64,000 bases of DNA from a virus, in IMG/VR virus record IMGVR_UViG_3300031962_000002, positions 1-64,000 of that record; one strand, written 5' to 3'. This document shows positions 4,424 to 17,008 of the stretch, piece by piece. Under the pieces are notes generated by a model. The model saw only the letters and a list, made by a program, of their open reading frames with translations. It searched no databases and was not told the DNA's origin. The position numbers were made by a program, and so were the translations under genes. The stretch's first letter is position 1, and each line of letters starts with the position of its first letter.

Positions 4424-5545
4424 ATGAAACCCCATGTGGATAGTGCCTCAAAATTTAAGACAAACATTTCTTTCTGCACGGGGTCACGAGGACTTGAACG
4501 TGGAATTGAAAGAACTGGCACAAAACTCCGAACACTCGCTCATGTGGAGATCGAAGCCTTTATCTGCGAAAATCTGGTTCAACAAATGGAGCAAGGTGTA
4601 TTGGATGAAGCACCTATCTGGACGAATCTTAAAACCTTCAACGGAAAGCCTTTTCGCGGAATGGTGGACATCCTCACAGGAGGTTATCCTTGCCAACCGT
4701 TTTCAGTTGCCGGACAACGAAAAGGAACAGAAGACCCACGACATCTCTGGCCATACATTAAAGACCTCATCAGAACAATTAGACCTGTTTGCTGCTTCTT
4801 CGAGAACGTCCCAGGACATATCACACTTGGCTATAGAGAGGTCAGATCAGATTTGGAACAACTTGGTTACACGGTTGAAGAAGGAATATTCAGTGCGGAA
4901 GAAGTTGGTGCTCCTCACCAGAGAAAAAGATTGTTCATTATTGCTGTGGACAACTCATACTGCCAACGATTCAAACAGGACAACAAAATACAAACAAGGA
5001 GGAACTCCATTGAGTATGCAAGTTCGTCAATGGGCAACACCGAAATCAAATGCCGCAAACAGTCCGGGGTTTCATGGACAAGGTGGACAAGATTTACAAA
5101 CTCAAGTAGTGAACTGGTCTACACCGGATACATCGGACGATGGGCATCCGAAAAACGGATTGACCCCAACAAACAGAAGGAAAGGGGCCGAAGAACTTTT
5201 ACCAAGGAATATATTGGCCATCTCCAACATTGCGGAAGCGAACAAGATTCCGAACAAAGCGAATTACGGTCAAATTGCATTATCGAACCATCCAGCTATC
5301 GTTGGCAAACCATTACGACCAAAGGCATTGAAGGACAGGAAGGGAATAGATGGCCAGCCAGACCAGGTCAGGAACAATTCGAATGGGAAGAACCTCATGT
5401 TGAATCCCGCATGGGTCTTTCAATTGATGGGTACAACTTTAGAGAAGACCTTCTTCGCATGGCGGGAAATTCCGTTGTCGAACAAACGGCAGAGAAAGCA
5501 TGGATAACACTTTGGAATAAATTTGACCTCACCCTAAACGTATAG
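4424..5545 (+). CDS. C5 cytosine DNA methyltransferase, catalytic (alpha) polypeptide
   Basis: Motif I-like FCTGSRGL, IV GYPCQPFS, VI ENV, VIII HQRKR and X-like RMAGNSVV. No motif IX is evident in this frame. Confidence 0.9.
   Translation: MKPHVDSASKFKTNISFCTGSRGLERGIERTGTKLRTLAHVEIEAFICENLVQQMEQGVLDEAPIWTNLKTFNGKPFRGMVDILTGGYPCQPFSVAGQRKGTEDPRHLWPYIKDLIRTIRPVCCFFENVPGHITLGYREVRSDLEQLGYTVEEGIFSAEEVGAPHQRKRLFIIAVDNSYCQRFKQDNKIQTRRNSIEYASSSMGNTEIKCRKQSGVSWTRWTRFTNSSSELVYTGYIGRWASEKRIDPNKQKERGRRTFTKEYIGHLQHCGSEQDSEQSELRSNCIIEPSSYRWQTITTKGIEGQEGNRWPARPGQEQFEWEEPHVESRMGLSIDGYNFREDLLRMAGNSVVEQTAEKAWITLWNKFDLTLNV
4434..5507 (+). CDS. Overprinted +1-frame ORF, putative methyltransferase beta polypeptide (TRD-like repeats and motif IX-like segment)
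   Basis: 357 codons open entirely within the MTase gene. It has W-x-T-(P/H) repeats with a 28-aa period and LNPAWVFQLMG near the C-terminus. Confidence 0.75.
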   Translation: MWIVPQNLRQTFLSARGHEDLNVELKELAQNSEHSLMWRSKPLSAKIWFNKWSKVYWMKHLSGRILKPSTESLFAEWWTSSQEVILANRFQLPDNEKEQKTHDISGHTLKTSSEQLDLFAASSRTSQDISHLAIERSDQIWNNLVTRLKKEYSVRKKLVLLTREKDCSLLLWTTHTANDSNRTTKYKQGGTPLSMQVRQWATPKSNAANSPGFHGQGGQDLQTQVVNWSTPDTSDDGHPKNGLTPTNRRKGAEELLPRNILAISNIAEANKIPNKANYGQIALSNHPAIVGKPLRPKALKDRKGIDGQPDQVRNNSNGKNLMLNPAWVFQLMGTTLEKTFFAWREIPLSNKRQRKHG

Positions 5546-8055: not shown

Positions 8056-8087
8056 AAAAAAAGGGGCTTTGCCTTCAAACCCCTTTC
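8056..8087. terminator. Intrinsic terminator between the convergent early and late blocks
   Basis: A-tract followed by ggggctttg-cctt-caaacccc-ttt. Confidence 0.65.
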
Positions 8088-8154
8088 CCACCCAAAAAAC
8101 TAAAAATTCCGTTAAAGTTGTTGGCTTTAAATGATGAACGTTAAGGCAAATATC

Positions 8155-8688
8155 TTATGCTGACGGTGCGTCAGCTAAAGTGGTTTTGATGAATTGATAT
8201 TCTTCCTCCCCAAATGCAATAGCCTGAGCAAATGTCGGGGCAACTCCATTGGAAGTAAAGGCCCTCACTTCCATCAAAAGATGTGCGAAGATGGTTGAGA
8301 ATATTTCCGATTTATTTGGCTTTACCTTAAGAATGGCGAGGACGTTTGTAAGCCATGTTTTAAGTGCTTCCTCATTATTGAAGTCTGTTGGTAATTCAAC
8401 CGCTGCCAAGTAGGCCATAGCCTTCACCAAAGCCAGTTTGACAACTCCAAGTATTTCTGTTGGAATCTGCGATTTGAAAAGCACATCGAGGACATCAGCT
8501 ACAACGGTAGCCGATTGTGATTCAATGGCGGTTTTTACCTTGCTGACAATACCAACGATAATAGTGATGTCATTCACCATGAATTTTTGAAGTGCATCTT
8601 CTACTTTGTGAATCACAACAAGAATGACATTCCAAATCTTTTGTTCTTCGGCCTTGAGGGTTGCGAGGTCTTTTGTGATTGCGCTCAT
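8155..8688 (-). CDS. Hypothetical helical protein at the end of the lysis cassette
   Basis: Coupled ORF with amphipathic helices. Confidence 0.7.
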   Translation of the reverse strand: MSAITKDLATLKAEEQKIWNVILVVIHKVEDALQKFMVNDITIIVGIVSKVKTAIESQSATVVADVLDVLFKSQIPTEILGVVKLALVKAMAYLAAVELPTDFNNEEALKTWLTNVLAILKVKPNKSEIFSTIFAHLLMEVRAFTSNGVAPTFAQAIAFGEEEYQFIKTTLADAPSA

Positions 8689-8927
8689 TTTGCTTGAGTG
8701 TTTTGATTAGCTACCTGATCAGGACTTTTGGTTGATCCATCTGGATTTTTGCCAGTCAGATATGCGATAACGCCCCCGGAAATAGTGGCAACACTGCCAG
8801 CGATTCCCAATACTACGGATGGTAATACGATCCCGTATTGAGAGGCTCCCAATACTGCGCCAGATAGTAAAAGACACGCACCGGCGATTGATGTCAATGT
8901 GTCTTTGATGTTCGAAGTTGGTTTCAT
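8685..8927 (-). CDS. Putative holin (2 TM)
   Basis: Two hydrophobic segments and a polar C-tail, near the endolysin. Confidence 0.6.
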   Translation of the reverse strand: MKPTSNIKDTLTSIAGACLLLSGAVLGASQYGIVLPSVVLGIAGSVATISGGVIAYLTGKNPDGSTKSPDQVANQNTQAK

Positions 8928-8932
8928 AAAAT

Positions 8933-9121
8933 TTAAAGTTTAGAAGGTAAAAATACTGCAATTATCGGAAATCCTACTAGGAATAATCCAGCGTAGGCAA
9001 TCAAATGATTCTCGTTCATTAATCCCGTTGAGATGACCCCAACTCCAGCCGTTCCACAATAAGCAATCAAATGATTAATCTTTGGTTCGGTTGGCTTATT
9101 TATGTTGTTCAGCACTGACAT
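8933..9121 (-). CDS. Small 2-TM membrane protein (holin/antiholin candidate)
   Basis: Two hydrophobic segments. Confidence 0.55.
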   Translation of the reverse strand: MSVLNNINKPTEPKINHLIAYCGTAGVGVISTGLMNENHLIAYAGLFLVGFPIIAVFLPSKL

Positions 9122-9507
9122 TAATACTTTAAATTTCCGTCTTTATCATAGTTGAAATAGTACGCAAGAGTGAATCCAAGGAAGAGAATCAGTTTAAACC
9201 AAAACACTGGGCCGCTATAAGGAATGAGATATTCAGAAATAAGATCAACTTTGCTTATTGTGCCAAGATAGGCAATAGGTTCATGCCTGAAAATGTTCAG
9301 CAAAGTATCGAACGCAAACCAATAGGTGAATAAGGCACACAAAACCGTGAACCATTTTGGTCTCTTATCTATCATTGCGAATAATGCGGCGAGTGCACAC
9401 GTTATTATCGCGTTCAGCGGATGAGAAGGATAAATTTGATGCTCAATTAGTTGCCAGTTGATGATCACCATAAGCAATGTAAAAGAAAACCAGATTAATA
9501 AATTCAT
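9121..9507 (-). CDS. Multi-TM membrane protein
   Basis: About four hydrophobic segments; coupled to the endolysin. Confidence 0.7.
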   Translation of the reverse strand: MNLLIWFSFTLLMVIINWQLIEHQIYPSHPLNAIITCALAALFAMIDKRPKWFTVLCALFTYWFAFDTLLNIFRHEPIAYLGTISKVDLISEYLIPYSGPVFWFKLILFLGFTLAYYFNYDKDGNLKY

Positions 9508-10094
9508 AGTGTTTGGAGTGCGTTCTTAACTAAAGGTATAAAATTATTCTCACATGATTCTACAGAATTGCCACCAAAGAATTTAACACCAGGGCAACTC
9601 TTTACCTGTCCTGTGCCATTTGTACGCTGACTTGTCACAATGTCCCACCAATGATGGTATTGAATGCCATCAGTATTAATTGTGATATCGAATTTTTTAC
9701 AAAGAATTGCATTTAGTTTTACCACAGTGTCTTTTTGCTCTTGCGTCATGTCATCATTGTCGAAATCGCCAAGATGCTCAATACATAAACCGAAATGGTT
9801 GGCCCCTGATATTCCGGCCGGAGGAACTTCGAAAGGTCTACAGACTGCCAACGTGCCATCTGGATAAGTTGAAAGGTTTTGTGCTATCTGTGAGAATCCT
9901 TCCTGTGTCATTTGATATTCTTCCATAGACTGAAGCCAATGAAATGGATCTGGCAACTGGCGAAACTCTGCATAGTTAGGGCGCCAAGTATGATGATTTT
10001 GAATGAGTTTTATAGGACGTTGAACGGTAAGACCTGCTAGCCAAGTAGCAAACTCCTGAAATTCAAATAATAAAAATTTTCCTTGCTGTTTCAT
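9504..10094 (-). CDS. Endolysin, N-acetylmuramoyl-L-alanine amidase (Amidase_2-like)
   Basis: Zn-amidase motifs IQNHHTW, CIEHLGDFD, YHHW and KSCPG. Confidence 0.85.
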   Translation of the reverse strand: MKQQGKFLLFEFQEFATWLAGLTVQRPIKLIQNHHTWRPNYAEFRQLPDPFHWLQSMEEYQMTQEGFSQIAQNLSTYPDGTLAVCRPFEVPPAGISGANHFGLCIEHLGDFDNDDMTQEQKDTVVKLNAILCKKFDITINTDGIQYHHWWDIVTSQRTNGTGQVKSCPGVKFFGGNSVESCENNFIPLVKNALQTL

Positions 10095-10459
10095 TGTCCT
10101 ATGTTTAGATAATGTAGAGCCTCCTCACCAATTTCATTTATTTCATTTTTGACCAAACATCGATCAGCCCCCAATTCTAATGCAAGTTCAATATTTGACC
10201 TTGGAATGTAACTGGAACTATACAAAAAAAATGGAGTATCTTTTATGTTAGGATCGCTCTTAGCCTCACCCGCAAAATGATAACCGTCCATTCCAGGCAT
10301 ATTGGCATCCGACATTATCAGATCCACTCTACATTTTTTCAATAAGACCAAAGCCTCATAACCATCACGGGCGCTGAAAACCTCTACCGCATTACTTTGC
10401 AAATACTTCTTTAGAAGTTTTCTGCGATCGTCATCATCCTCAACAATGAGTATTTTCAT
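10091..10459 (-). CDS. Stand-alone CheY-like response-regulator receiver domain (122 aa)
   Basis: MKILIVEDD...DLIMSDANMPGMDG...FLYSS...GADRCLVK. The acidic pair, phospho-Asp D51, S81 and K104 are intact. The likely start is 10459. Confidence 0.9.
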   Translation of the reverse strand: MKILIVEDDDDRRKLLKKYLQSNAVEVFSARDGYEALVLLKKCRVDLIMSDANMPGMDGYHFAGEAKSDPNIKDTPFFLYSSSYIPRSNIELALELGADRCLVKNEINEIGEEALHYLNIGQ

Positions 10460-10460
10460 T

Positions 10461-10769
10461 TTAATTGAGTGCGTTAATCCACTGATAAATTTTCCAACAT
10501 GCACCGCCAATAGTGCTAAGCCCGGCAATGATATAACTGATTTTTTTCCAATTAATTGATTTATTTCTAACAGGTTGATTCTGTAATGTTTCCAATAGTA
10601 TTTCCAATTTGGATTGTATCTCTTCAACACTCTCGCGTAACTCACTGATATTTCGAATTAAACCTTTGATTTCATTTTTTGAATCTCCGTAAACCCCACG
10701 TTCAAGCGTCTCAGTCTTTTTCTCAAGTCTACTTAACCTATCTATAACATCTTGCAGTATCCTTGCCAT
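10461..10769 (-). CDS. Coiled-coil protein with a C-terminal TM segment (XhlA-like/holin-like)
   Basis: Heptad-rich N-terminus and a single C-terminal hydrophobic helix. Confidence 0.7.
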   Translation of the reverse strand: MARILQDVIDRLSRLEKKTETLERGVYGDSKNEIKGLIRNISELRESVEEIQSKLEILLETLQNQPVRNKSINWKKISYIIAGLSTIGGACWKIYQWINALN

Positions 10770-10985
10770 TTAATTGTCGTGATTGAGCGGGAAAGTATTT
10801 GCTTGATGTTCGATGATTTCTTTTTGTAAAATAATGACTTGGTTTTTTACACTCAATTCTTTCTCCTTCTCTTTAAGTTTCAAATCCTTTGCCTTATTCG
10901 AATTATAAGTTTTGGCAAAGAAAATTACAGCACTTGTCAATACTGTAAGGATTAAAAAACTGCCGCCAACTATAAACTCTTCCAT
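10770..10985 (-). CDS. 71-aa single-TM plus coiled-coil protein
   Basis: MEEFIVGG...IFFAKTYNSNKAKDLKLKEKEKELSVKNQVIILQKEIIEHQA. The start at 10985 is in a TAATG overlap. Confidence 0.7.
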   Translation of the reverse strand: MEEFIVGGSFLILTVLTSAVIFFAKTYNSNKAKDLKLKEKEKELSVKNQVIILQKEIIEHQANTFPLNHDN

Positions 10986-11353
10986 TATCCATAGATGTAA
11001 GCCCTCAGCAAAATTAAACTTATGCAACCAAATATTAAAGTGTCGTAACTCACGGCATACCAACCTATACTAAATCGCGCCTGGTTGCATTCCAGCATGA
11101 AATCGAAAAGTTTACCAGTTATGACCAATGCAATCCATTTCAATTCTTTTGGCCTTTCTGTCTCTTGAGTCCACAATGTCCATATGTAAGCAATTGGGAC
11201 TATATTAATGCAGATGTTCCAAAAGTAAATAGGCCAGATCATTTTCAAACTGGAGAAAGGGAACATGGAATATTCTTTAAATCCTACTCCTTGGACTTTG
11301 CTAAACGCAGCCCAAACAATAGAGGCAAGAAATATGATCCACAGTCTTTTCAC
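10985..11353 (-). CDS. Multi-TM membrane protein (122 aa)
   Basis: GTG start overlapping the upstream TGA; about four hydrophobic segments. Confidence 0.7.
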   Translation of the reverse strand: MKRLWIIFLASIVWAAFSKVQGVGFKEYSMFPFSSLKMIWPIYFWNICINIVPIAYIWTLWTQETERPKELKWIALVITGKLFDFMLECNQARFSIGWYAVSYDTLIFGCISLILLRAYIYG

Positions 11354-11556
11354 TGCTTTGGATTGCAATTTACATTTACCGTCCCATCTGGATTGGTTGT
11401 GCAAACGCATCCGGTTTGACATGCTAGGGCAATGGGATGAATAACCTGTTCGGCTGGCTCTGTCCCATATTCATGATGCCAATTCTCCCCATCCCAACGA
11501 GCAGGAATAACCTTGCCTTGAAGTTTGATTGCGTAGTGACCTGGTTTGATTTCCAT
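11350..11556 (-). CDS. Small protein with a Cys-rich C-terminal tail
   Basis: 68 aa ending ACQTGCVCTTNPDGTVNVNCNPKQ. Confidence 0.7.
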   Translation of the reverse strand: MEIKPGHYAIKLQGKVIPARWDGENWHHEYGTEPAEQVIHPIALACQTGCVCTTNPDGTVNVNCNPKQ

Positions 11557-11567
11557 ATTTAAAAGGT

Positions 11568-11735
11568 TTATGTTTTTGAATCTAAAAATAGACTTCCAAT
11601 CCCAATCAGCAAAAATGACGGGATAAACATGAAAAGTTCAGCATATTTCGAACTCATTACAATTATAGCCGAAGCGATACCAGCAATTATGAGGATAGTG
11701 CCAAAAATATTTGAAATAGATTTTAGTATTCTCAT
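11568..11735 (-). CDS. 55-aa 2-TM membrane protein (not in ORF track)
   Basis: MRILKSISNIFGTILIIAGIASAIIVMSSKYAELFMFIPSFLLIGIGSLFLDSKT; ATGA-coupled. Confidence 0.7.
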   Translation of the reverse strand: MRILKSISNIFGTILIIAGIASAIIVMSSKYAELFMFIPSFLLIGIGSLFLDSKT

Positions 11736-11887
11736 ATGAATTCAATCTTTTGAATAGTGACTTGTTCCGAATAATGTTTTGCCATAAACATTTCCTTAGC
11801 AAGCGAAACTGTAGGTGCAATAACTTTTTCAGTAAATGGCACCAAGCTTAAAACTCCCTTCCTGCAATATGTAATTTTGAACTGCAT
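11732..11887 (-). CDS. 51-aa hypothetical protein (not in ORF track)
   Basis: MQFKITYCRKG...QKIEFI; fills the gap exactly, with ATGA coupling downstream. Confidence 0.6.
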   Translation of the reverse strand: MQFKITYCRKGVLSLVPFTEKVIAPTVSLAKEMFMAKHYSEQVTIQKIEFI

Positions 11888-11888
11888 T

Positions 11889-13424
11889 TTAAAATTGCCT
11901 CGCCAAGTCTATTCCTATCTGAATATAACTCGCATTGCTGAAGTGAATCCCATCTCCTTGAAAACTGTATGAGTTTGTGCTGAATAAGTTTGCATTGGCC
12001 AATGCTGCCGCCGCATTTGTCTGCGCTGTCTGAACAGTGCTCAGATAAGTCTCACTAGCCTGTCCATTTGGTAATCTTGTTATCCAAACTGGTGCCGATA
12101 CGCCTTTAACATCGGTTCCTAATTCAGGTCTAAGTGTATTATAGAAGGTCGTAATATTTGCCTGATATGCACTAGCGGCAGCGGAAATTGTTGCGTCTTG
12201 CTCTCCTTGTGTTCCAACAATGGCGACCATGACAGGCCGTTGGCTGGCCGTCTGAAAGGCTATTAGAGCAGCCGTCCAATTATTCATTAAGGTGCTGTAA
12301 AGTCTCAGCCCTGAATTTGGAACAACCGTATTATCTGTAGGAAGCCAGAATAATGCCCCGCCGCCATTATTGTAAAGAGCTGTTCCTCCTACAGCATATT
12401 TGTGAAGATAAACGGTCCCACCAACGCGAGTAATGTATGCATTGCCTATACTAGCTTCATAGCCAAAATCAGTGGAAGCCAATGAGCCATCCCCAAGCAT
12501 ATTATTATTTGCCGACTCATCCAAAGTTTGCCATGATGTTCCAAGTGGTTGAGTATAATCAGCAAGATTCGTCCAAACTTTCACTCCTGTTTGAGCAGTA
12601 TTGTAAGGACTTGTTAGATAAGATTTCGGATTTCCACGCCCTGAAGCATTTGATTGACCCCAAATAAAAACAACATTTACGCCAGTATAACTAGACCATA
12701 AAGGAATCGACATGCTATATCTGCTATTCAGATAAGCATTCAATTCATCCATATCGCTTAGACTAAGTGGACGAGTCCAAACTAGAGTTTCATACCAATC
12801 ACAATTTAAACCGCGATATTGCGTGCCAATGGAAGTGGCAAGTGCTGCTGATTGCACGACACTTGGAAGTGTATATGTTGCCTGTATAACACCATTAATG
12901 AATGTGCGACGTGATCCCCATCCAAGTTCAGCGCCATAAGCCGCGATCGTTCCGGCTTCTGAAGTTGTATTTGGCGAAGAATTGGTATTGTAAATTACAT
13001 TACTATTACTTGCTTCGTAACCATTCCAAAGTGTATTTGTGCCGCTAGCACCTTGATGACCAAAAAAGCCACATAAAGCATTATTTGCGCGAACGCCAAT
13101 AGTGACTGTAAATATTGGCCAGTTAGTTGTAGAGAACGCAGAATTTAGATAGGCAGAACTGTTCCCAGTAACTTTTGCTTGACTATTCACCCCTGTTCCA
13201 GTCGTAAGAGTGCCAGCCTGTTGGATCATCGGATTATTATTCCCGCTTTTATCAGTGAATGAATATGATCCAGATGAACCAGTTATCGCATCAGCACGCC
13301 ACCATCCGGCAATATCATGAAAAATTGAATATGGTCTGGGGACTGTCTGAGGTGCTGAAAGATATCCTTGCGACTCACATGAGAAAAATGAAAATAGTGC
13401 AAAAAGTAAAAATAGTTTTTTCAT
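11889..13424 (-). CDS. Signal-peptide protein with a lectin/LamG-like N-domain and an SGNH sialate-O-acetylesterase-like (SASA) domain
   Basis: SGNH blocks GQSNA, KYAVGGT, QGEQDA and DGIHF. The N-domain has a WWRAD...DKSGN motif. N-terminus MKKLFLLFALFSFFSC. Confidence 0.8.
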   Translation of the reverse strand: MKKLFLLFALFSFFSCESQGYLSAPQTVPRPYSIFHDIAGWWRADAITGSSGSYSFTDKSGNNNPMIQQAGTLTTGTGVNSQAKVTGNSSAYLNSAFSTTNWPIFTVTIGVRANNALCGFFGHQGASGTNTLWNGYEASNSNVIYNTNSSPNTTSEAGTIAAYGAELGWGSRRTFINGVIQATYTLPSVVQSAALATSIGTQYRGLNCDWYETLVWTRPLSLSDMDELNAYLNSRYSMSIPLWSSYTGVNVVFIWGQSNASGRGNPKSYLTSPYNTAQTGVKVWTNLADYTQPLGTSWQTLDESANNNMLGDGSLASTDFGYEASIGNAYITRVGGTVYLHKYAVGGTALYNNGGGALFWLPTDNTVVPNSGLRLYSTLMNNWTAALIAFQTASQRPVMVAIVGTQGEQDATISAAASAYQANITTFYNTLRPELGTDVKGVSAPVWITRLPNGQASETYLSTVQTAQTNAAAALANANLFSTNSYSFQGDGIHFSNASYIQIGIDLARQF

Positions 13425-13427
13425 AAT

Positions 13428-15836
13428 TTACCTAATTCTACGTGCTCTAATTGAACCAACGAACTGAGGATTGCCTACTGTAAATGTTGCTTGTGCATTT
13501 AAATAATAAGTAGTGTTACCACTCAAACTAATTCTATAAGGTCCAATTACATCCGTGAATTTTGAGGTCCCTAAAAGGGCTGCTTGTGGAACATAGGATA
13601 TATTTTGACCTTCGGTTGATCCCGAGGCGCTAGCGGTTGTTGTACTTACTACAAATATTGCATTTGAGGATGCGGTTATAGTCGCTGAATTCGAACTATA
13701 AGTAAAAAAGGCAGAAATATCCCAATCGCCTGCGGTTAAAGCAATTGAAGTAATGTTTTGATATGTCGCACTTGTAGTGAAATTTGTGTAGGTACTTTGA
13801 ATTGCATTAATTTCTTCCCCAATGTTTCCCGCAGATGCTGCGTCATTGGTTGCTGTCCCAGCAATTTTATTAGATGTGCCGGTTACGGTTATTGAACCTC
13901 CTATTTTTGCTGCTCCATTTGTACCAAGTGCCCACAAATTGGTAGTAGTTCCGCTCCCATTAGTTGGGACTTCCCAATAACCATTATAAGAATCAGTAAT
14001 CGTATTCCCTGAGCCAGCATTAACAGTAGGGGATTTAAAATAGTGATAGCGTTGAAGAGCAAGTGTTGAAGATCCTGCTGCCCATGTTTGTGTACTGCCA
14101 GTCCAAACCGTTTCTGGAAACTCTGTTCCTGCGGTCATTGCAGTATGCGCACCTGGGTCAACTCGCATTGTTGGTATCCATGAAGCTGAAAGAGCGCTTT
14201 GTACATTATAAAAATGTGCATTATCAGAAGTGCTTCCTAAAAGAAAATCACGATTTGTATTATTATAAAAACGTGCAGCTTCACCGTTTGATACATAGAA
14301 ACTTTCCCAATATCCTGTGTTTGTAAAAAATTTAAATTCACCAGTACTAGGATTAGCCGATATAGCGAAATTTCCTGATCCACCGGCAAATCCCAATTTT
14401 GGCGTTCCTGAGTTTGGTCCGATAACTGCAATTTTATTGGTAGCATCCCAAGTAAAATCAGTGGGAGCCGCCACGGTTGTTGCACTTGTGGCATAAACAA
14501 TCCCATTTGTATTTAGCCCAGAAAGTCCTCCGCTTGGTGCCGCACTTGTCCATGTAGTTCCATTGGATGTCAAAACATTTCCATTTGCGCCGACTGCAAC
14601 ACGTGTAGGAGTCGCATATCCACTTGCCCCAACTGCGCCGCCAACAAGTATATCGCCCTGATTTGTCAATGGATAAATGGGATAGTATTTTGAATCCCAA
14701 GAAGCAGTTCCAGTTCCGCTTGTCAAGATACATTTTACAATTAAAAAGTCCCCCGCATTCAATGCGATAATGGTATTTGCTCCTGAACTCTGAACTGTCA
14801 CAACTCCGCTGGATGTGCAATTGTTATAAATTCTAAATTGCTGACCTAAAACAAGCGTAGACGTTACTGGGAGTGTAACAGTTTGATTGGAAGTAGTTCC
14901 AGTGAAATACTGATCTTCTGTACTTGAAACCGTAAGAGTTGTTGTTGCTCCCGCCGTTGCAGTTGTGGTATATCCAAGCAATGCATTATTAGCAGACAAA
15001 TTTTTATTAGCATCCCATCCTGCAAATGCGCTAGCTGTTGGTGCAGATGTTACCGAAGTAACATTGGTCCCTCCATTAGCCACGGGAAGCACTCCAGTCA
15101 CTCCTGTAGTCAAAGGCAATCCGGTGGCATTCGTTAAGGTTAAATTCGTAGGAGCAATCCCAAAATTCAAAGACGCGGATGAAGCATTCCCTATCGTAAT
15201 ATTCCCTGAATTGGAACTTGTTCCGATGTTTATATCACCCGTACTTCCTTGGTTAAGGTTTAAAGTAGTAGTAGAACTTACCGAAAGAGAACCTGAAGAA
15301 GGGAATATAGAAGCATTCGCAGCCGTAACTAAATTTCCAACCGAGTTAATCGTAAATACCTTCGTGTTCGAACCATTGTTTACATTCCAGTATAGATCAA
15401 GAGTTCCTGTAGGATTAGTCAATCCTTGAACCGGAGTAGCGTACCATAAAAATTTGGTTGATTGACTTGCCGCCGTAGATTGCGTTTTCCATCCTTGTCC
15501 CTCAAAAACAAGTGATGGTGAAATCTGTTGGGCTCCCGCTGCGGCTGCTGTGGCATTTTGTAACCATAATCCTGCCCCGTTAGTTTGCGTTGTTGCAAGA
15601 GATGGAAAATTCAATTGAAAGGTATTCGAAGAACTGCCGGTTATTGACGTAGCCCCAGTAAGTAATGTTGACACAAAAAGACTACCTGATGCCTTTTTAT
15701 TAACGCCTCCCTGTAGGATTGGGACATAGACGGTTCCACTCAAATCAGTGGCAGAAGTCATGGCGCTAATTTTCACATCCTGGGAAAATCCTCCGAATGA
15801 TAAGACTGTGAAAAATAAGAAAAGTAATTTTTTCAT
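13428..15836 (-). CDS. Tail fibre-like protein with a signal peptide
   Basis: Thr/Ser/Gly-rich fibre modules (KISAMTSAT, GVLPVANGGT, GTATNDAASAGNIGE...TAGDWD...IRARRIR). Start MKKLLF at 15836. Confidence 0.75.
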   Translation of the reverse strand: MKKLLFLFFTVLSFGGFSQDVKISAMTSATDLSGTVYVPILQGGVNKKASGSLFVSTLLTGATSITGSSSNTFQLNFPSLATTQTNGAGLWLQNATAAAAGAQQISPSLVFEGQGWKTQSTAASQSTKFLWYATPVQGLTNPTGTLDLYWNVNNGSNTKVFTINSVGNLVTAANASIFPSSGSLSVSSTTTLNLNQGSTGDINIGTSSNSGNITIGNASSASLNFGIAPTNLTLTNATGLPLTTGVTGVLPVANGGTNVTSVTSAPTASAFAGWDANKNLSANNALLGYTTTATAGATTTLTVSSTEDQYFTGTTSNQTVTLPVTSTLVLGQQFRIYNNCTSSGVVTVQSSGANTIIALNAGDFLIVKCILTSGTGTASWDSKYYPIYPLTNQGDILVGGAVGASGYATPTRVAVGANGNVLTSNGTTWTSAAPSGGLSGLNTNGIVYATSATTVAAPTDFTWDATNKIAVIGPNSGTPKLGFAGGSGNFAISANPSTGEFKFFTNTGYWESFYVSNGEAARFYNNTNRDFLLGSTSDNAHFYNVQSALSASWIPTMRVDPGAHTAMTAGTEFPETVWTGSTQTWAAGSSTLALQRYHYFKSPTVNAGSGNTITDSYNGYWEVPTNGSGTTTNLWALGTNGAAKIGGSITVTGTSNKIAGTATNDAASAGNIGEEINAIQSTYTNFTTSATYQNITSIALTAGDWDISAFFTYSSNSATITASSNAIFVVSTTTASASGSTEGQNISYVPQAALLGTSKFTDVIGPYRISLSGNTTYYLNAQATFTVGNPQFVGSIRARRIR

Positions 15837-15844
15837 AATTTTTG

Positions 15845-17008
15845 TCATTGAATGCAATGGTATTTCCAAGTGTAAGTAGTCGTGGCTGAAAGGGTGCCCT
15901 TGAAAGAAAAAGTTGTTGTAGTCTCTGAATTATTAACATATCCTCCATTGGCTCCTAAAGCTATTGCAGCGGCGTTATCTGGAATTAAAACCACCGACGG
16001 CGCAGAAGCATACGCAGCATTAAACGTAATTGTAGCGATAATTGAGGCCGCTGTGGGGCTACTGCCAGTCAACACAGAGATCAACCCTCCTGTATCCGAC
16101 CCACGCGTTATGTTTACTGTTGGGCTTGTCCCAGCTCCCACGCCTGCTGCAATGGCTGGTGGTCCGCCTTGTCCGACCAAATGTGATAGTGTCAAAGTAA
16201 AAACACCATTTCCAGTTAAAGAGGATGTAGATGTAGTGAATTGGAGGTTTATTAATTGAGAACTCGTTAAAGTTGATCCAAGTGTCAAAGCACCTATACT
16301 GCCAGAGAAACCTCCATATAAACTCATTCCAGTGGTTCCACTTGCTGGTTGAATGGTTGGATTACCACCACCAACTTGTGCGAATGTAAAATTTCCACTC
16401 TTGCTTGCAAATGCCAAATCAATGAGACTTGCGCTACCAGCCGTAGCGATCGTTCTGGTGCCACCAGAAATAGATGAACTTCCTAAATTCAAATCTCCGG
16501 CTGCATCTCCGAAAAGCCCTGAAGAAACGACATTTGTGCCGTTTGACATTGCTAATTCATTATTCAAGGCGGAATTACTGATTCCTGGTGGAAGCGCCCA
16601 TGAACCATCTGCTCTTAAAAAGTTTGTTGTTCCACCACCTGAAGAAGGGACAATTCCACTTCCGGTACTTGAAAAAGGATGTGTATCGGCAATTTGATAA
16701 TAAGTCCCATTGTAACTTACAATCCTTGTATCGCCTGCTTTTAGATCCCCACTTGCAAGTGCTACTGCACCTGAAAATTGAAGTGCTTTTGCTCCGAGAC
16801 TATTTCTGTTAAGGGTAGCTGCTCCAGTATTCCCGTTGGTAAATCTTACAAGGAACCTTTCATTTGTGGTATACACTGCTGGCAATGGCTCTGGAATCGT
16901 ATAGGTATTAGTTCCAGAAGCCACTAAGGTTTTTAAACCACCATCGACGCTCTGCCCACAGGCAGCTAGTGGAAATAAAATCAGAATTAATAATTTTCTT
17001 AGAACCAT
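15845..17008 (-). CDS. Tail fibre-like protein with a signal peptide/lipobox
   Basis: Fibre motifs NTGAATLN..SLGAK and GGGTTNFLRADGSW. N-terminus MVLRKLLILILFPLAAC. Confidence 0.75.
   Translation of the reverse strand: MVLRKLLILILFPLAACGQSVDGGLKTLVASGTNTYTIPEPLPAVYTTNERFLVRFTNGNTGAATLNRNSLGAKALQFSGAVALASGDLKAGDTRIVSYNGTYYQIADTHPFSSTGSGIVPSSGGGTTNFLRADGSWALPPGISNSALNNELAMSNGTNVVSSGLFGDAAGDLNLGSSSISGGTRTIATAGSASLIDLAFASKSGNFTFAQVGGGNPTIQPASGTTGMSLYGGFSGSIGALTLGSTLTSSQLINLQFTTSTSSLTGNGVFTLTLSHLVGQGGPPAIAAGVGAGTSPTVNITRGSDTGGLISVLTGSSPTAASIIATITFNAAYASAPSVVLIPDNAAAIALGANGGYVNNSETTTTFSFKGTLSATTTYTWKYHCIQ

Follow-up and report, generated by a model that had tools for sequence, protein, structure and literature searches.

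A receiver-domain gene coupled to an endolysin gene in the lysis region of an uncultured soil phage

We studied a chain of coupled genes on the minus strand of a viral genome, IMG/VR record IMGVR_UViG_3300031962_000002, in which a stand-alone CheY-like receiver is encoded between a small helical membrane protein and an endolysin. The window, by which we mean the whole stretch of DNA that we analyzed, is the first 64 kb of this record (positions 1 to 64,000); the record is 75,540 bp long and is 94% complete according to CheckV. The chain is part of the lysis region, which makes up the 3' end of the late operon. It is a soil-phage variant of a recurrent arrangement, a receiver in a lysis cassette, of which we found no description in the searchable literature.

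Reading along the minus strand, the first of six genes is g1 (11350 to 11556), an open reading frame (ORF) for a soluble protein of 68 amino acids with four invariant cysteines and no signal sequence. The stop codon of g1 overlaps, within GTGA, the GTG start codon of g2 (10985 to 11353), which encodes a multi-pass membrane protein of 122 amino acids. Next is g3 (10770 to 10985), which overlaps g2 by 1 nucleotide (TAATG) and encodes 71 amino acids with an N-terminal membrane segment and a lysine-rich helical tail. g4 (10461 to 10769) abuts g3, and its product of 102 amino acids has a coiled coil and a C-terminal hydrophobic segment. After a 1-nucleotide spacer comes the receiver, g5 (10091 to 10459; 122 amino acids), and an ATGA overlap joins g5 to g6 (9504 to 10094), which encodes an Amidase_2 endolysin of 196 amino acids. 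Six genes with overlapping, abutting, or 1-nucleotide junctions had been described in an earlier reading of the sequence alone, and all of them are present as claimed. That sequence-only reading delimited a region from 9504 to 11556; the genes are confirmed, but the end coordinate is arbitrary, as the coupled chain runs on at both sides. We consider g1 to g5 to be more than chance ORFs because homologues in the same order are found on independent metagenome contigs, with 47 to 75% identity for the receiver and 33 to 62% identity for the other proteins.

The product of g5 matches Response_reg (PF00072) with E = 1.7e-18 and 67.2 bits, compared to a cut-off of 30.2 bits, and it scored 68.2 bits in the search of the genome. 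It is the sole receiver in the 75.5-kb record, and no output domain was found in it. The AlphaFold2 model has the (beta-alpha)5 fold, with five strand-helix units and a predicted local distance difference test (pLDDT) score of 93.7. The best matches from Foldseek were RR468, CheY4, DivK, and PhoB, with template modeling scores of 0.82 to 0.85 to RR468, CheY4, and PhoB. The catalytic set is complete: g5 has the acidic pair (E7/D8), the phospho-acceptor (D51), S81, and K104. A cysteine (Cys101) takes the place of the aromatic switch residue. The loop DxNMPxMDG resembles that of CheY.

No histidine kinase was noticed in the window by the sequence-only reading, and this is borne out for the whole record: there were no matches to HATPase_c, HisKA, or Hpt in all 75.5 kb. 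Therefore, any phosphate for the receiver must be derived from the host, and the donor would be a host kinase or acetyl phosphate.

The product of g6 matches Amidase_2 (PF01510; E = 1.9e-10; 41.6 bits, compared to a cut-off of 26), and it also matches the endolysin and amidase families in PHROG. By eye, we recognized the motifs NHHTW, YHHWWD, and KSCPG, which may hold the His/His/Cys triad for binding of Zn; weak alignments to amidases in the PDB span residues 36 to 143 only. The gene is among the last of the late operon and is followed by genes for small membrane proteins. We found no signal sequence, no signal-arrest-release segment, and no membrane segment in g6. Because it lacks a membrane segment, g6 needs a holin.

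The module in related phages

A search of 5.8 billion proteins identified nine clusters of receiver orthologues with lengths of 121 to 122 amino acids and identities of 51 to 75%, after which there is a sharp drop to generic regulators. A profile scan of JGI metagenomes identified nine contigs (L039 to L047). The receiver and the helical proteins are retained in eight related metagenome contigs. The order g1, g2, g3, g4, receiver is kept in L040/L041, L042, L045, and L046, as seen by tblastn and by reading the ORFs. In L039, a homologue of the esterase that is encoded upstream of the chain in the window is directly followed by g3, g4, and the receiver, without g1 and g2. L044 has a different multi-pass membrane protein, followed by a g3-like protein (identified by inspection), g4, and the receiver. 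Besides the window, six distinct contig types that span the region have the order g3-like, g4, receiver. These three genes are the core of the module, and g1 and g2, which usually precede them, are accessory.

The endolysins that follow the receiver belong to three unrelated families (Amidase_2, GH24, and DUF5675). In L043 (493 to 1002) and L047 (197 to 724), a DUF5675 gene (PF18925; E = 4.8e-14) overlaps the stop codon of the receiver. In L045, the N terminus of a GH24 lysozyme follows the receiver with an ATGA overlap, and this lysozyme is 56% identical to the GH24 lysozyme (PF00959; E = 4e-31) that is found four genes downstream of the receiver in L044. The L044 lysozyme is followed by a membrane protein of 120 amino acids and then by a protein with a lipobox and a C-terminal anchor. 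A homologue of the 120-residue protein (80% identity) is encoded upstream of g1 in L045. In L045, the module is flanked by a lysis-type membrane gene and a lysozyme and lies inside the lysis cassette. In L039 and L040, the receiver is followed by helical and membrane proteins only, up to the end of the contig. g6 itself is not conserved in the relatives. The sequence-only reading would have been refuted if the linkage of receiver and endolysin were absent from related phages; instead, the linkage is present, and it survives a swap of the endolysin family.

Two proteins encoded downstream of receiver modules (L044:3335-3793 and L040:7266-7679) have an N-terminal signal or lipobox, a coiled-coil middle, and a C-terminal anchor, which is the architecture of unimolecular spanins. 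Neither of them matches any family.

Within this clade, the g4 gene always lies directly before the receiver. g4 has an N-terminal coiled-coil hairpin, an invariant loop (GVYGDxKNE), and a C-terminal hydrophobic segment that is rich in glycine, serine, and threonine. This segment is below the Kyte-Doolittle threshold in the window protein and seems by inspection to be more hydrophobic in the relatives. A profile search of the PDB with g4 returned generic coiled coils only. The close family of g4, with 19 clusters, is no larger than that of the receiver. The contigs that carry it match those with receiver orthologues in length, which suggests that they are the same contigs. When we looked for longer proteins in which the receiver is fused to other domains, we obtained generic multi-domain bacterial regulators only (43% identity or less) and no fusion of g4 to the receiver, which is weak evidence.

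When we compared the g4 profile to 1.84 billion representative proteins, we found 166 proteins with E ≤ 1e-3, nearly all of which have 75 to 125 amino acids and align end to end. (g4 itself scores 108 bits with the family profile.) The members of this extended family share a loop motif, RG[VIL]YGDxxNxVxGLI, and the C-terminal hydrophobic segment. The family is unnamed: it has at least 166 representatives at 50% identity, of about 80 to 110 amino acids, and no Pfam family matches it above the cut-off. Its genomic context is known for a few members only. Among 86 members that we scanned, the only recurrent names that were not generic were "holin" (PHROG 689; 3 members) and XhlA (4 members).

We considered whether g4 might be a form of XhlA (PF10779). 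XhlA acts together with the holin XhlB in the XhlA-XhlB-XlyA lysis cassette of PBSX, from Bacillus subtilis (PMC5589764). Both XhlA and g4 are small membrane proteins that are encoded just upstream of a wall hydrolase, and a viral cluster that contains XhlA is among the nearest neighbors of g4 in the Atlas (0.90). However, the best XhlA match in the extended g4 family is below the cut-off (E = 8.3e-4), and none of seven close homologues of g4 match PF10779 even at E ≤ 1. Also, the PBSX cassette has no receiver, and its host is Gram positive. We rejected this assignment; the likeness is one of architecture and position.

A scan of IMG/VR DNA for the g4 family's pattern identified one clear member (L096:1036-1287; 83 amino acids; 95 bits). 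It is in record IMGVR_UViG_3300020195_000197, where positions 1 to 2224 encode, in order, a glycine-rich fibre, a secreted protein of 91 amino acids, the g4-like protein, a Peptidase_M15_3 of 159 amino acids (PF08291; E = 2.7e-14), and a membrane-anchored coiled-coil protein. A PDB search, BLASTP against the peptidase of Alteromonas phage PB15 (described below), and PF13539 gave no match for the peptidase. This record (19.5 kb; 38% complete) contains no receiver. Because its g4-like gene lies directly before an M15 endolysin, the g4 family occupies the slot before the endolysin independently of the receiver. In the clade of the window, the receiver is inserted between the g4-family protein and the endolysin, and it is translationally coupled to both. 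These searches delimit a family of lysis-cassette membrane proteins of about 80 to 110 amino acids, with the motif RGVYGD..N..GLI.

In the other core protein, g3, a single strong membrane segment at the N terminus is followed by a lysine-rich helical tail that ends with EIIEHQ..FP.NHDN. By search or alignment, we found its counterpart in L039, L040/41, L042, L045, and L046; the counterpart in L044 was recognized by inspection of ORFs only. By the positive-inside rule, the tail of g3 and the helical part of g4 would lie on the cytoplasmic side of the membrane, like the receiver.

As for the accessory genes, two segments of g2 exceed the hydropathy threshold and two more are rich in aromatic residues, so its earlier description as a protein with about four transmembrane segments is plausible but not certain. 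The N-terminal segment resembles a signal peptide or a signal anchor. The start codon of g2 is supported by the homologue from L045, which opens with the same MKRLWIIF. No family in Pfam, PHROG, PADLOC, or NCBIfam matched g2, and a search of the Atlas was uninformative. In L046 (5088 to 5505), the homologue of g2 is split over two frames (the tblastn pieces are at 5136 to 5249 and 5254 to 5451), which reflects either a frameshift or an assembly error.

The cysteines that are invariant in g1 are C46, C50, C52, and C64, and homologues of g1 are present in L040/41, L042, L045, and L046. g1 matches nothing in Pfam or PHROG. Its AlphaFold2 model is a small all-beta protein (pLDDT of 84.7), and a fold search of the PDB found nothing at E ≤ 0.001; the best match was to MicN from Salmonella (E = 0.19). 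It had been proposed from the sequence that the cassette might respond to an extracellular cue. g1 could then be a cysteine-rich signal peptide that is sensed by the membrane proteins and relayed to the receiver, as in arbitrium-like systems. All that fits this idea is that g1 is small, contains several cysteines, and comes first in the module. g1 does not have a hydrophobic N terminus and is predicted to fold; g1 and g2 are both missing from L039, which nevertheless keeps g3, g4, and the receiver; and no kinase-like or sensor domain is present. We find no support for an extracellular cue, and we consider a secreted signal to be hardly credible.

Receivers near lysis genes in cultured phages

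Four cultured types of Alteromonas phage carry an analogous pair of genes, so the arrangement can be tested experimentally. In R8W (vB_AmeP_R8W; MW043865), a long tail fibre and a class II holin are followed by gp47 (98 amino acids, with an N-terminal membrane segment and helices), the receiver gp48, which is joined to it by an overlap, gp49 (hydrophobic by inspection), and the small terminase. The holin is two genes upstream of the receiver. In R9Y2 (vB_AmaS-R9Y2; OM732336), gp13, which also has an N-terminal membrane segment and helices, is followed by the receiver gp12 and the GH108 lysozyme gp11, and all of these genes overlap. In XX1924 (MN592896), the order is tail fibre, a multi-pass membrane protein of 147 amino acids, a coiled-coil protein of 101 amino acids with a C-terminal membrane segment, the receiver, DUF5675, and GTA_holin_3TM. 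PB15 (KX982260) has the same order as XX1924, except that a Peptidase_M15_3 follows the receiver.

These phages share with the window a fibre, in some cases a multi-pass membrane protein, a small anchored helical protein, an overlapping receiver, and an endolysin or holin. In XX1924 and PB15, the partner of the receiver (101 amino acids) is built like g4, with an N-terminal coiled coil and a C-terminal membrane segment. As in the window, no kinase gene is annotated in the stretches that we inspected. The Alteromonas receivers are 24 to 26% identical to g5, and all four have the full catalytic set with the canonical tyrosine and lysine; some of them also have a C-terminal helical extension. Unlike the Alteromonas phages, the clade of the window has two helical membrane proteins (g3 and g4) and the four-cysteine protein g1. 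The hosts also differ: the Alteromonas phages infect marine Gammaproteobacteria, whereas the host of the phage in the window is from soil and is probably a member of the Bacteroidota. The architecture is common to the window and the Alteromonas phages, and its recurrence may be independent.

The sequence-only reading took it as established that canonical lysis cassettes contain no two-component parts. This holds in the searchable literature, in which our searches turned up no account of a receiver domain within the lysis cassette of a phage. However, GenBank records do carry such genes, with the labels "response regulator" or "PhoB." In the paper on R8W (PMC8228385), the receiver gp48 is presented as "PhoB," an auxiliary metabolic gene.

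DUF5675 lies right after the receiver in two unrelated groups of phages (L043/L047, and XX1924, where it is at L090:2438-2836), and in XX1924 the next gene is GTA_holin_3TM. A 2026 preprint groups DUF5675 by structure with the C82 (YkuD-like) peptidases and proposes that it is a candidate lysin. Its position supports the view that DUF5675 may be a true endolysin.

We also considered whether the module might have no connection to lysis. It could be a moron or an accessory cassette that serves, for instance, in superinfection exclusion, in membrane remodelling, or in a tail-fibre or receptor function and that sits at a permissive junction between the fibre and lysis genes. Indeed, the module always follows fibre-like genes, other phage receivers are found in unrelated contexts, and g3 has a weak, sub-threshold match to SieB (E = 0.031). 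This explanation does not account for L045, where the module is between a lysis-type membrane gene and a lysozyme, for R8W, where the module follows a holin, or for L096, where a member of the g4 family is in the holin slot before an M15 endolysin. Furthermore, PADLOC gave no matches beyond generic similarity to receivers and one weak match of g3 to a restriction enzyme. We view a role that is unrelated to lysis as improbable.

Receiver residues and possible roles

Across the 14 receivers of the clade, E7/D8, D51, N53, and S81 are invariant. The canonical lysine (K104) is kept in just two of them (the window protein and L046) and is replaced by N, Q, S, or E in the other 12. The aromatic switch position is cysteine in 13 of the 14 and phenylalanine in L046. 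Judging from these patterns, the pocket of the receiver is under selection; for most of the clade, the same does not apply to the classical switch residues. In helix alpha-1, L16, K17, K18, Y19, L20, and Q21 are invariant or nearly so.

The conservation of helix alpha-1 is what would be expected if the receiver interacts with host kinases, as this helix is the kinase-docking face in complexes of the RR468-HK853 type. Single-domain receivers are also known to act as phosphate sinks. A receiver that is tethered by g3 or g4 could be a late sink or decoy for the histidine kinases of the host, such as envelope-stress sensors, and so block the host's response to envelope damage; it would be adjacent to the lysis genes only because both are expressed late. 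This proposal fits the intact Asp pocket and the lack of a gene for a cognate kinase. There is also a precedent: PIT4 is reported to be a phage protein that perturbs host two-component systems (PMC10714779). On the other hand, a sink requires efficient phosphotransfer, yet the lysine was lost in 12 of the 14 members. A sink also leaves unexplained why the receiver stays tightly coupled to g4 and the endolysin across at least three replacements of the endolysin and why the arrangement recurs in unrelated phages and hosts. We consider interference with host signaling to be unlikely, although it is the alternative to a role in lysis control that we take most seriously.

The loss of the lysine in 12 of 14 members and the presence of cysteine at the switch position in 13 of 14 would be easier to understand if no signal is received at all. 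Receivers that are atypical and independent of phosphorylation are well established. The fold could be a soluble structural subunit or adaptor of a membrane complex formed by g3 and g4, for instance as a cofactor of the holin or as a chaperone. Neither PADLOC nor NCBIfam assigned any of the module's proteins to a specific family, but the NCBIfam models that come nearest to the receiver by score, RssB and CpdR, are of the adaptor type, and both are far below their cut-offs. Without use of the pocket, it is hard to explain why E7/D8, D51, N53, and S81 are invariant among receivers that are 47 to 75% identical, and the window protein, L046, and the four Alteromonas receivers retain the full catalytic set. 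A pseudo-receiver seems quite unlikely to us, and somewhat more so than a phosphate sink.

The reading that we tentatively prefer is that g1 to g5 are an accessory module for the control of lysis whose receiver takes its phosphate from the host. A role associated with lysis is the best reading because of the position of the module, its coupling to the endolysin, its survival of endolysin swaps, its contexts in L045 and R8W, and the lysis slot of the g4 family. On the inner side of the membrane, the receiver would dock on the cytoplasmic helical parts of g4, g3, or both. Its Asp51 pocket would take its state from a host kinase or from acetyl phosphate, and this state would modulate how or when the membrane proteins give the cytoplasmic endolysin access to the wall. 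The net effect would be control of timing, similar to that by an antiholin or a holin cofactor, that reads the phospho-signaling or energy state of the host. When we predicted the complex of the receiver with residues 1 to 76 of g4, the score was 0.00, and we used this result neither for nor against docking.

Several known systems are similar in part. In bacteria, control of Cid and Lrg, which are holin/antiholin-like proteins, is exerted by the two-component system LytSR; its regulator LytR binds DNA, acts on transcription, and is encoded in a cellular genome. As proposed for the module, LytSR ties a two-component pathway to holin-like membrane proteins and murein hydrolase activity. However, g5 has no DNA-binding domain and is inside a phage cassette. 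CheY, DivK, Spo0F, and CpdR, which act by contact or as phosphate sinks, share with g5 the fold, the active-site residues, and the absence of an output domain. g5 differs from these proteins in that it is encoded by a virus, lacks a cognate kinase, has a cysteine as the switch residue, and belongs to a clade in which most members lost the lysine; also, its neighbors in the genome encode small membrane proteins and an endolysin.

Among phages, small accessory proteins from the lysis cassette or nearby set the timing of the holin, as in T4 (holin T with RI and RIII), lambda (S107), and N4 (gp62 and gp63). To our knowledge, none of the known controls of lysis (the holin clock, antiholins, or lysis inhibition in T4 and N4) uses two-component parts. 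The T4, lambda, and N4 proteins have no relationship to the module in sequence or fold, and they have no two-component receiver domain. In N4, gp62 and the regulatory region of the pinholin face the cytoplasm (PMC12642591), which is also where g3, g4, and the receiver would act. The "Receiver domain" in that paper is a label for a region of the holin and not a CheY fold (PMC12642591).

Several observations weigh against control of lysis by the receiver. First, the proposed function of the module rests on position and architecture, and we infer that the receiver controls the timing of lysis from position only. The module is kept next to tail-fibre genes about as consistently as next to lysis genes. 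Second, the loss of K104 and of the switch residue across the clade may mean that classical switching, driven by phosphorylation, is relaxed. Third, homology between the partner proteins of the window and of the Alteromonas phages is undetectable by hhalign: when g3 or g4 is compared to the Alteromonas partners, the membrane segments alone align. With the hidden Markov model of the extended g4 family, the partners from XX1924 and PB15 score 19 bits, shuffled or reversed decoys reach 7.2 bits or less, and the partners from R8W and R9Y2 do not score. On these comparisons, the partner proteins share an architecture and may or may not share an ancestor.

Fourth, in our survey of other viral receivers, lysis genes were rarely seen nearby. 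Among 22 IMG/VR records with receivers, one has an Amidase_2 gene, and it is 8 kb from the receiver. A Pfam scan of 99 ORFs that flank 11 stand-alone receivers from IMG/VR found no matches to endolysins and one match to a holin, and ten of these stand-alone receivers have no lysis gene within 2.5 kb; these negatives are soft, as the Pfam scan missed an endolysin that is defined by PHROG and so under-detects. We rejected one apparent case, the provirus L021, because its receiver has a GGDEF gene as its partner, and because ORFs that look like morphogenesis genes on inspection stand between this receiver and the lysis genes.

In L021 (5235 to 9481 of the stretch from provirus IMGVR_UViG_2617271115_000002; L026 is similar), a holin (phrog_198), an endolysin (phrog_181), an Rz-like spanin, and two morphogenesis-like ORFs are followed by a receiver of 133 amino acids and a GGDEF-like protein of 314 amino acids, before the baseplate genes. 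This is a moron of a receiver and a diguanylate cyclase near a lysis cassette, which is a different module. Another receiver match, in L092 (OQ572403, "UNVERIFIED: Pseudomonas phage Y1"; 67.2 to 72.7 kb), lies amid the C terminus of CheA, CheB, a receiver-GGDEF protein, and prfB, as judged by inspection of the ORFs. This stretch resembles the chemotaxis or Wsp genes of Pseudomonas and is probably bacterial DNA in the record.

A broader proposal is possible but rather doubtful: stand-alone receivers that bind small, membrane-tethered helical proteins might be a widespread and undescribed class of lysis regulators in phages. Such a device would read the host's pool of phosphodonors (a kinase or acetyl phosphate, reporting the state of the envelope or of energy) at the inner membrane, and it would advance or delay the triggering of the holin. 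The soil clade and the Alteromonas phages would be two lineages of one device, and the annotation as "PhoB" would be wrong. The timing of lysis sets the burst size and fitness of a phage. If the proposal is true, then phages have a direct read-out of host physiology when deciding on lysis, and the published annotation of a PhoB auxiliary metabolic gene related to phosphate would be corrected.

The host and the rest of the late operon

The phage is probably an uncultured tailed phage from soil; the only public sequencing run that holds this stretch is a soil metagenome, which is probably its source. No RNA run is among the public runs that hold it. We found no close relative of the region in a DNA search of INPHARED, no close relative in IMG/VR by searching with the receiver, the amidase, or g4, and no close relative in the genomes of GTDB by searching with g4 or the 511-residue esterase. 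Just 2 of 40 genes in the window have a Shine-Dalgarno-like 4-mer (GGAG, GAGG, or AGGA) at positions -20 to -4, and the leaders are A-rich. Judging from these leaders, Shine-Dalgarno sites are probably not used by the host, as would fit a member of the Bacteroidota.

Downstream of g6, four more genes on the minus strand (g7 to g10; 8155 to 9507) are joined by overlaps or gaps of a few bases, and they make up a variable remainder of the lysis region. g7 encodes 128 amino acids with three or four membrane segments, and g8 encodes 62 amino acids with one segment above the threshold. g9 (80 amino acids) is holin-like, with membrane segments that are rich in glycine and alanine and with a charged tail, but it has weak matches only (to the holin family phrog_2879, E = 0.031, and to PF20712, E = 0.0048). 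g10 encodes a helical protein of 177 amino acids. None of these four had a tblastn match in L039 to L047. Candidates for the holin and for envelope disruption are among g7 to g10, and no single gene can be assigned as the holin.

A terminator-like hairpin on the minus strand (8057 to 8089), with a stem of 13 pairs and a run of T behind it, marks the end of the late operon, downstream of g10. We found no comparably strong terminator from the fibre genes to g10. On the other side of the chain, two small coupled genes on the minus strand (11568 to 11887), which encode 51 amino acids and 55 amino acids (with two membrane segments), connect the tail-fibre and esterase genes to g1. Further upstream (11889 to 15869), a fibre-like protein of 813 amino acids opens with a hydrophobic, signal-like segment. 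The esterase from the same stretch, a protein of 511 amino acids, opens with a lipoprotein-like signal that ends with FFSC; L039 has a homologue of this protein with 62% identity.

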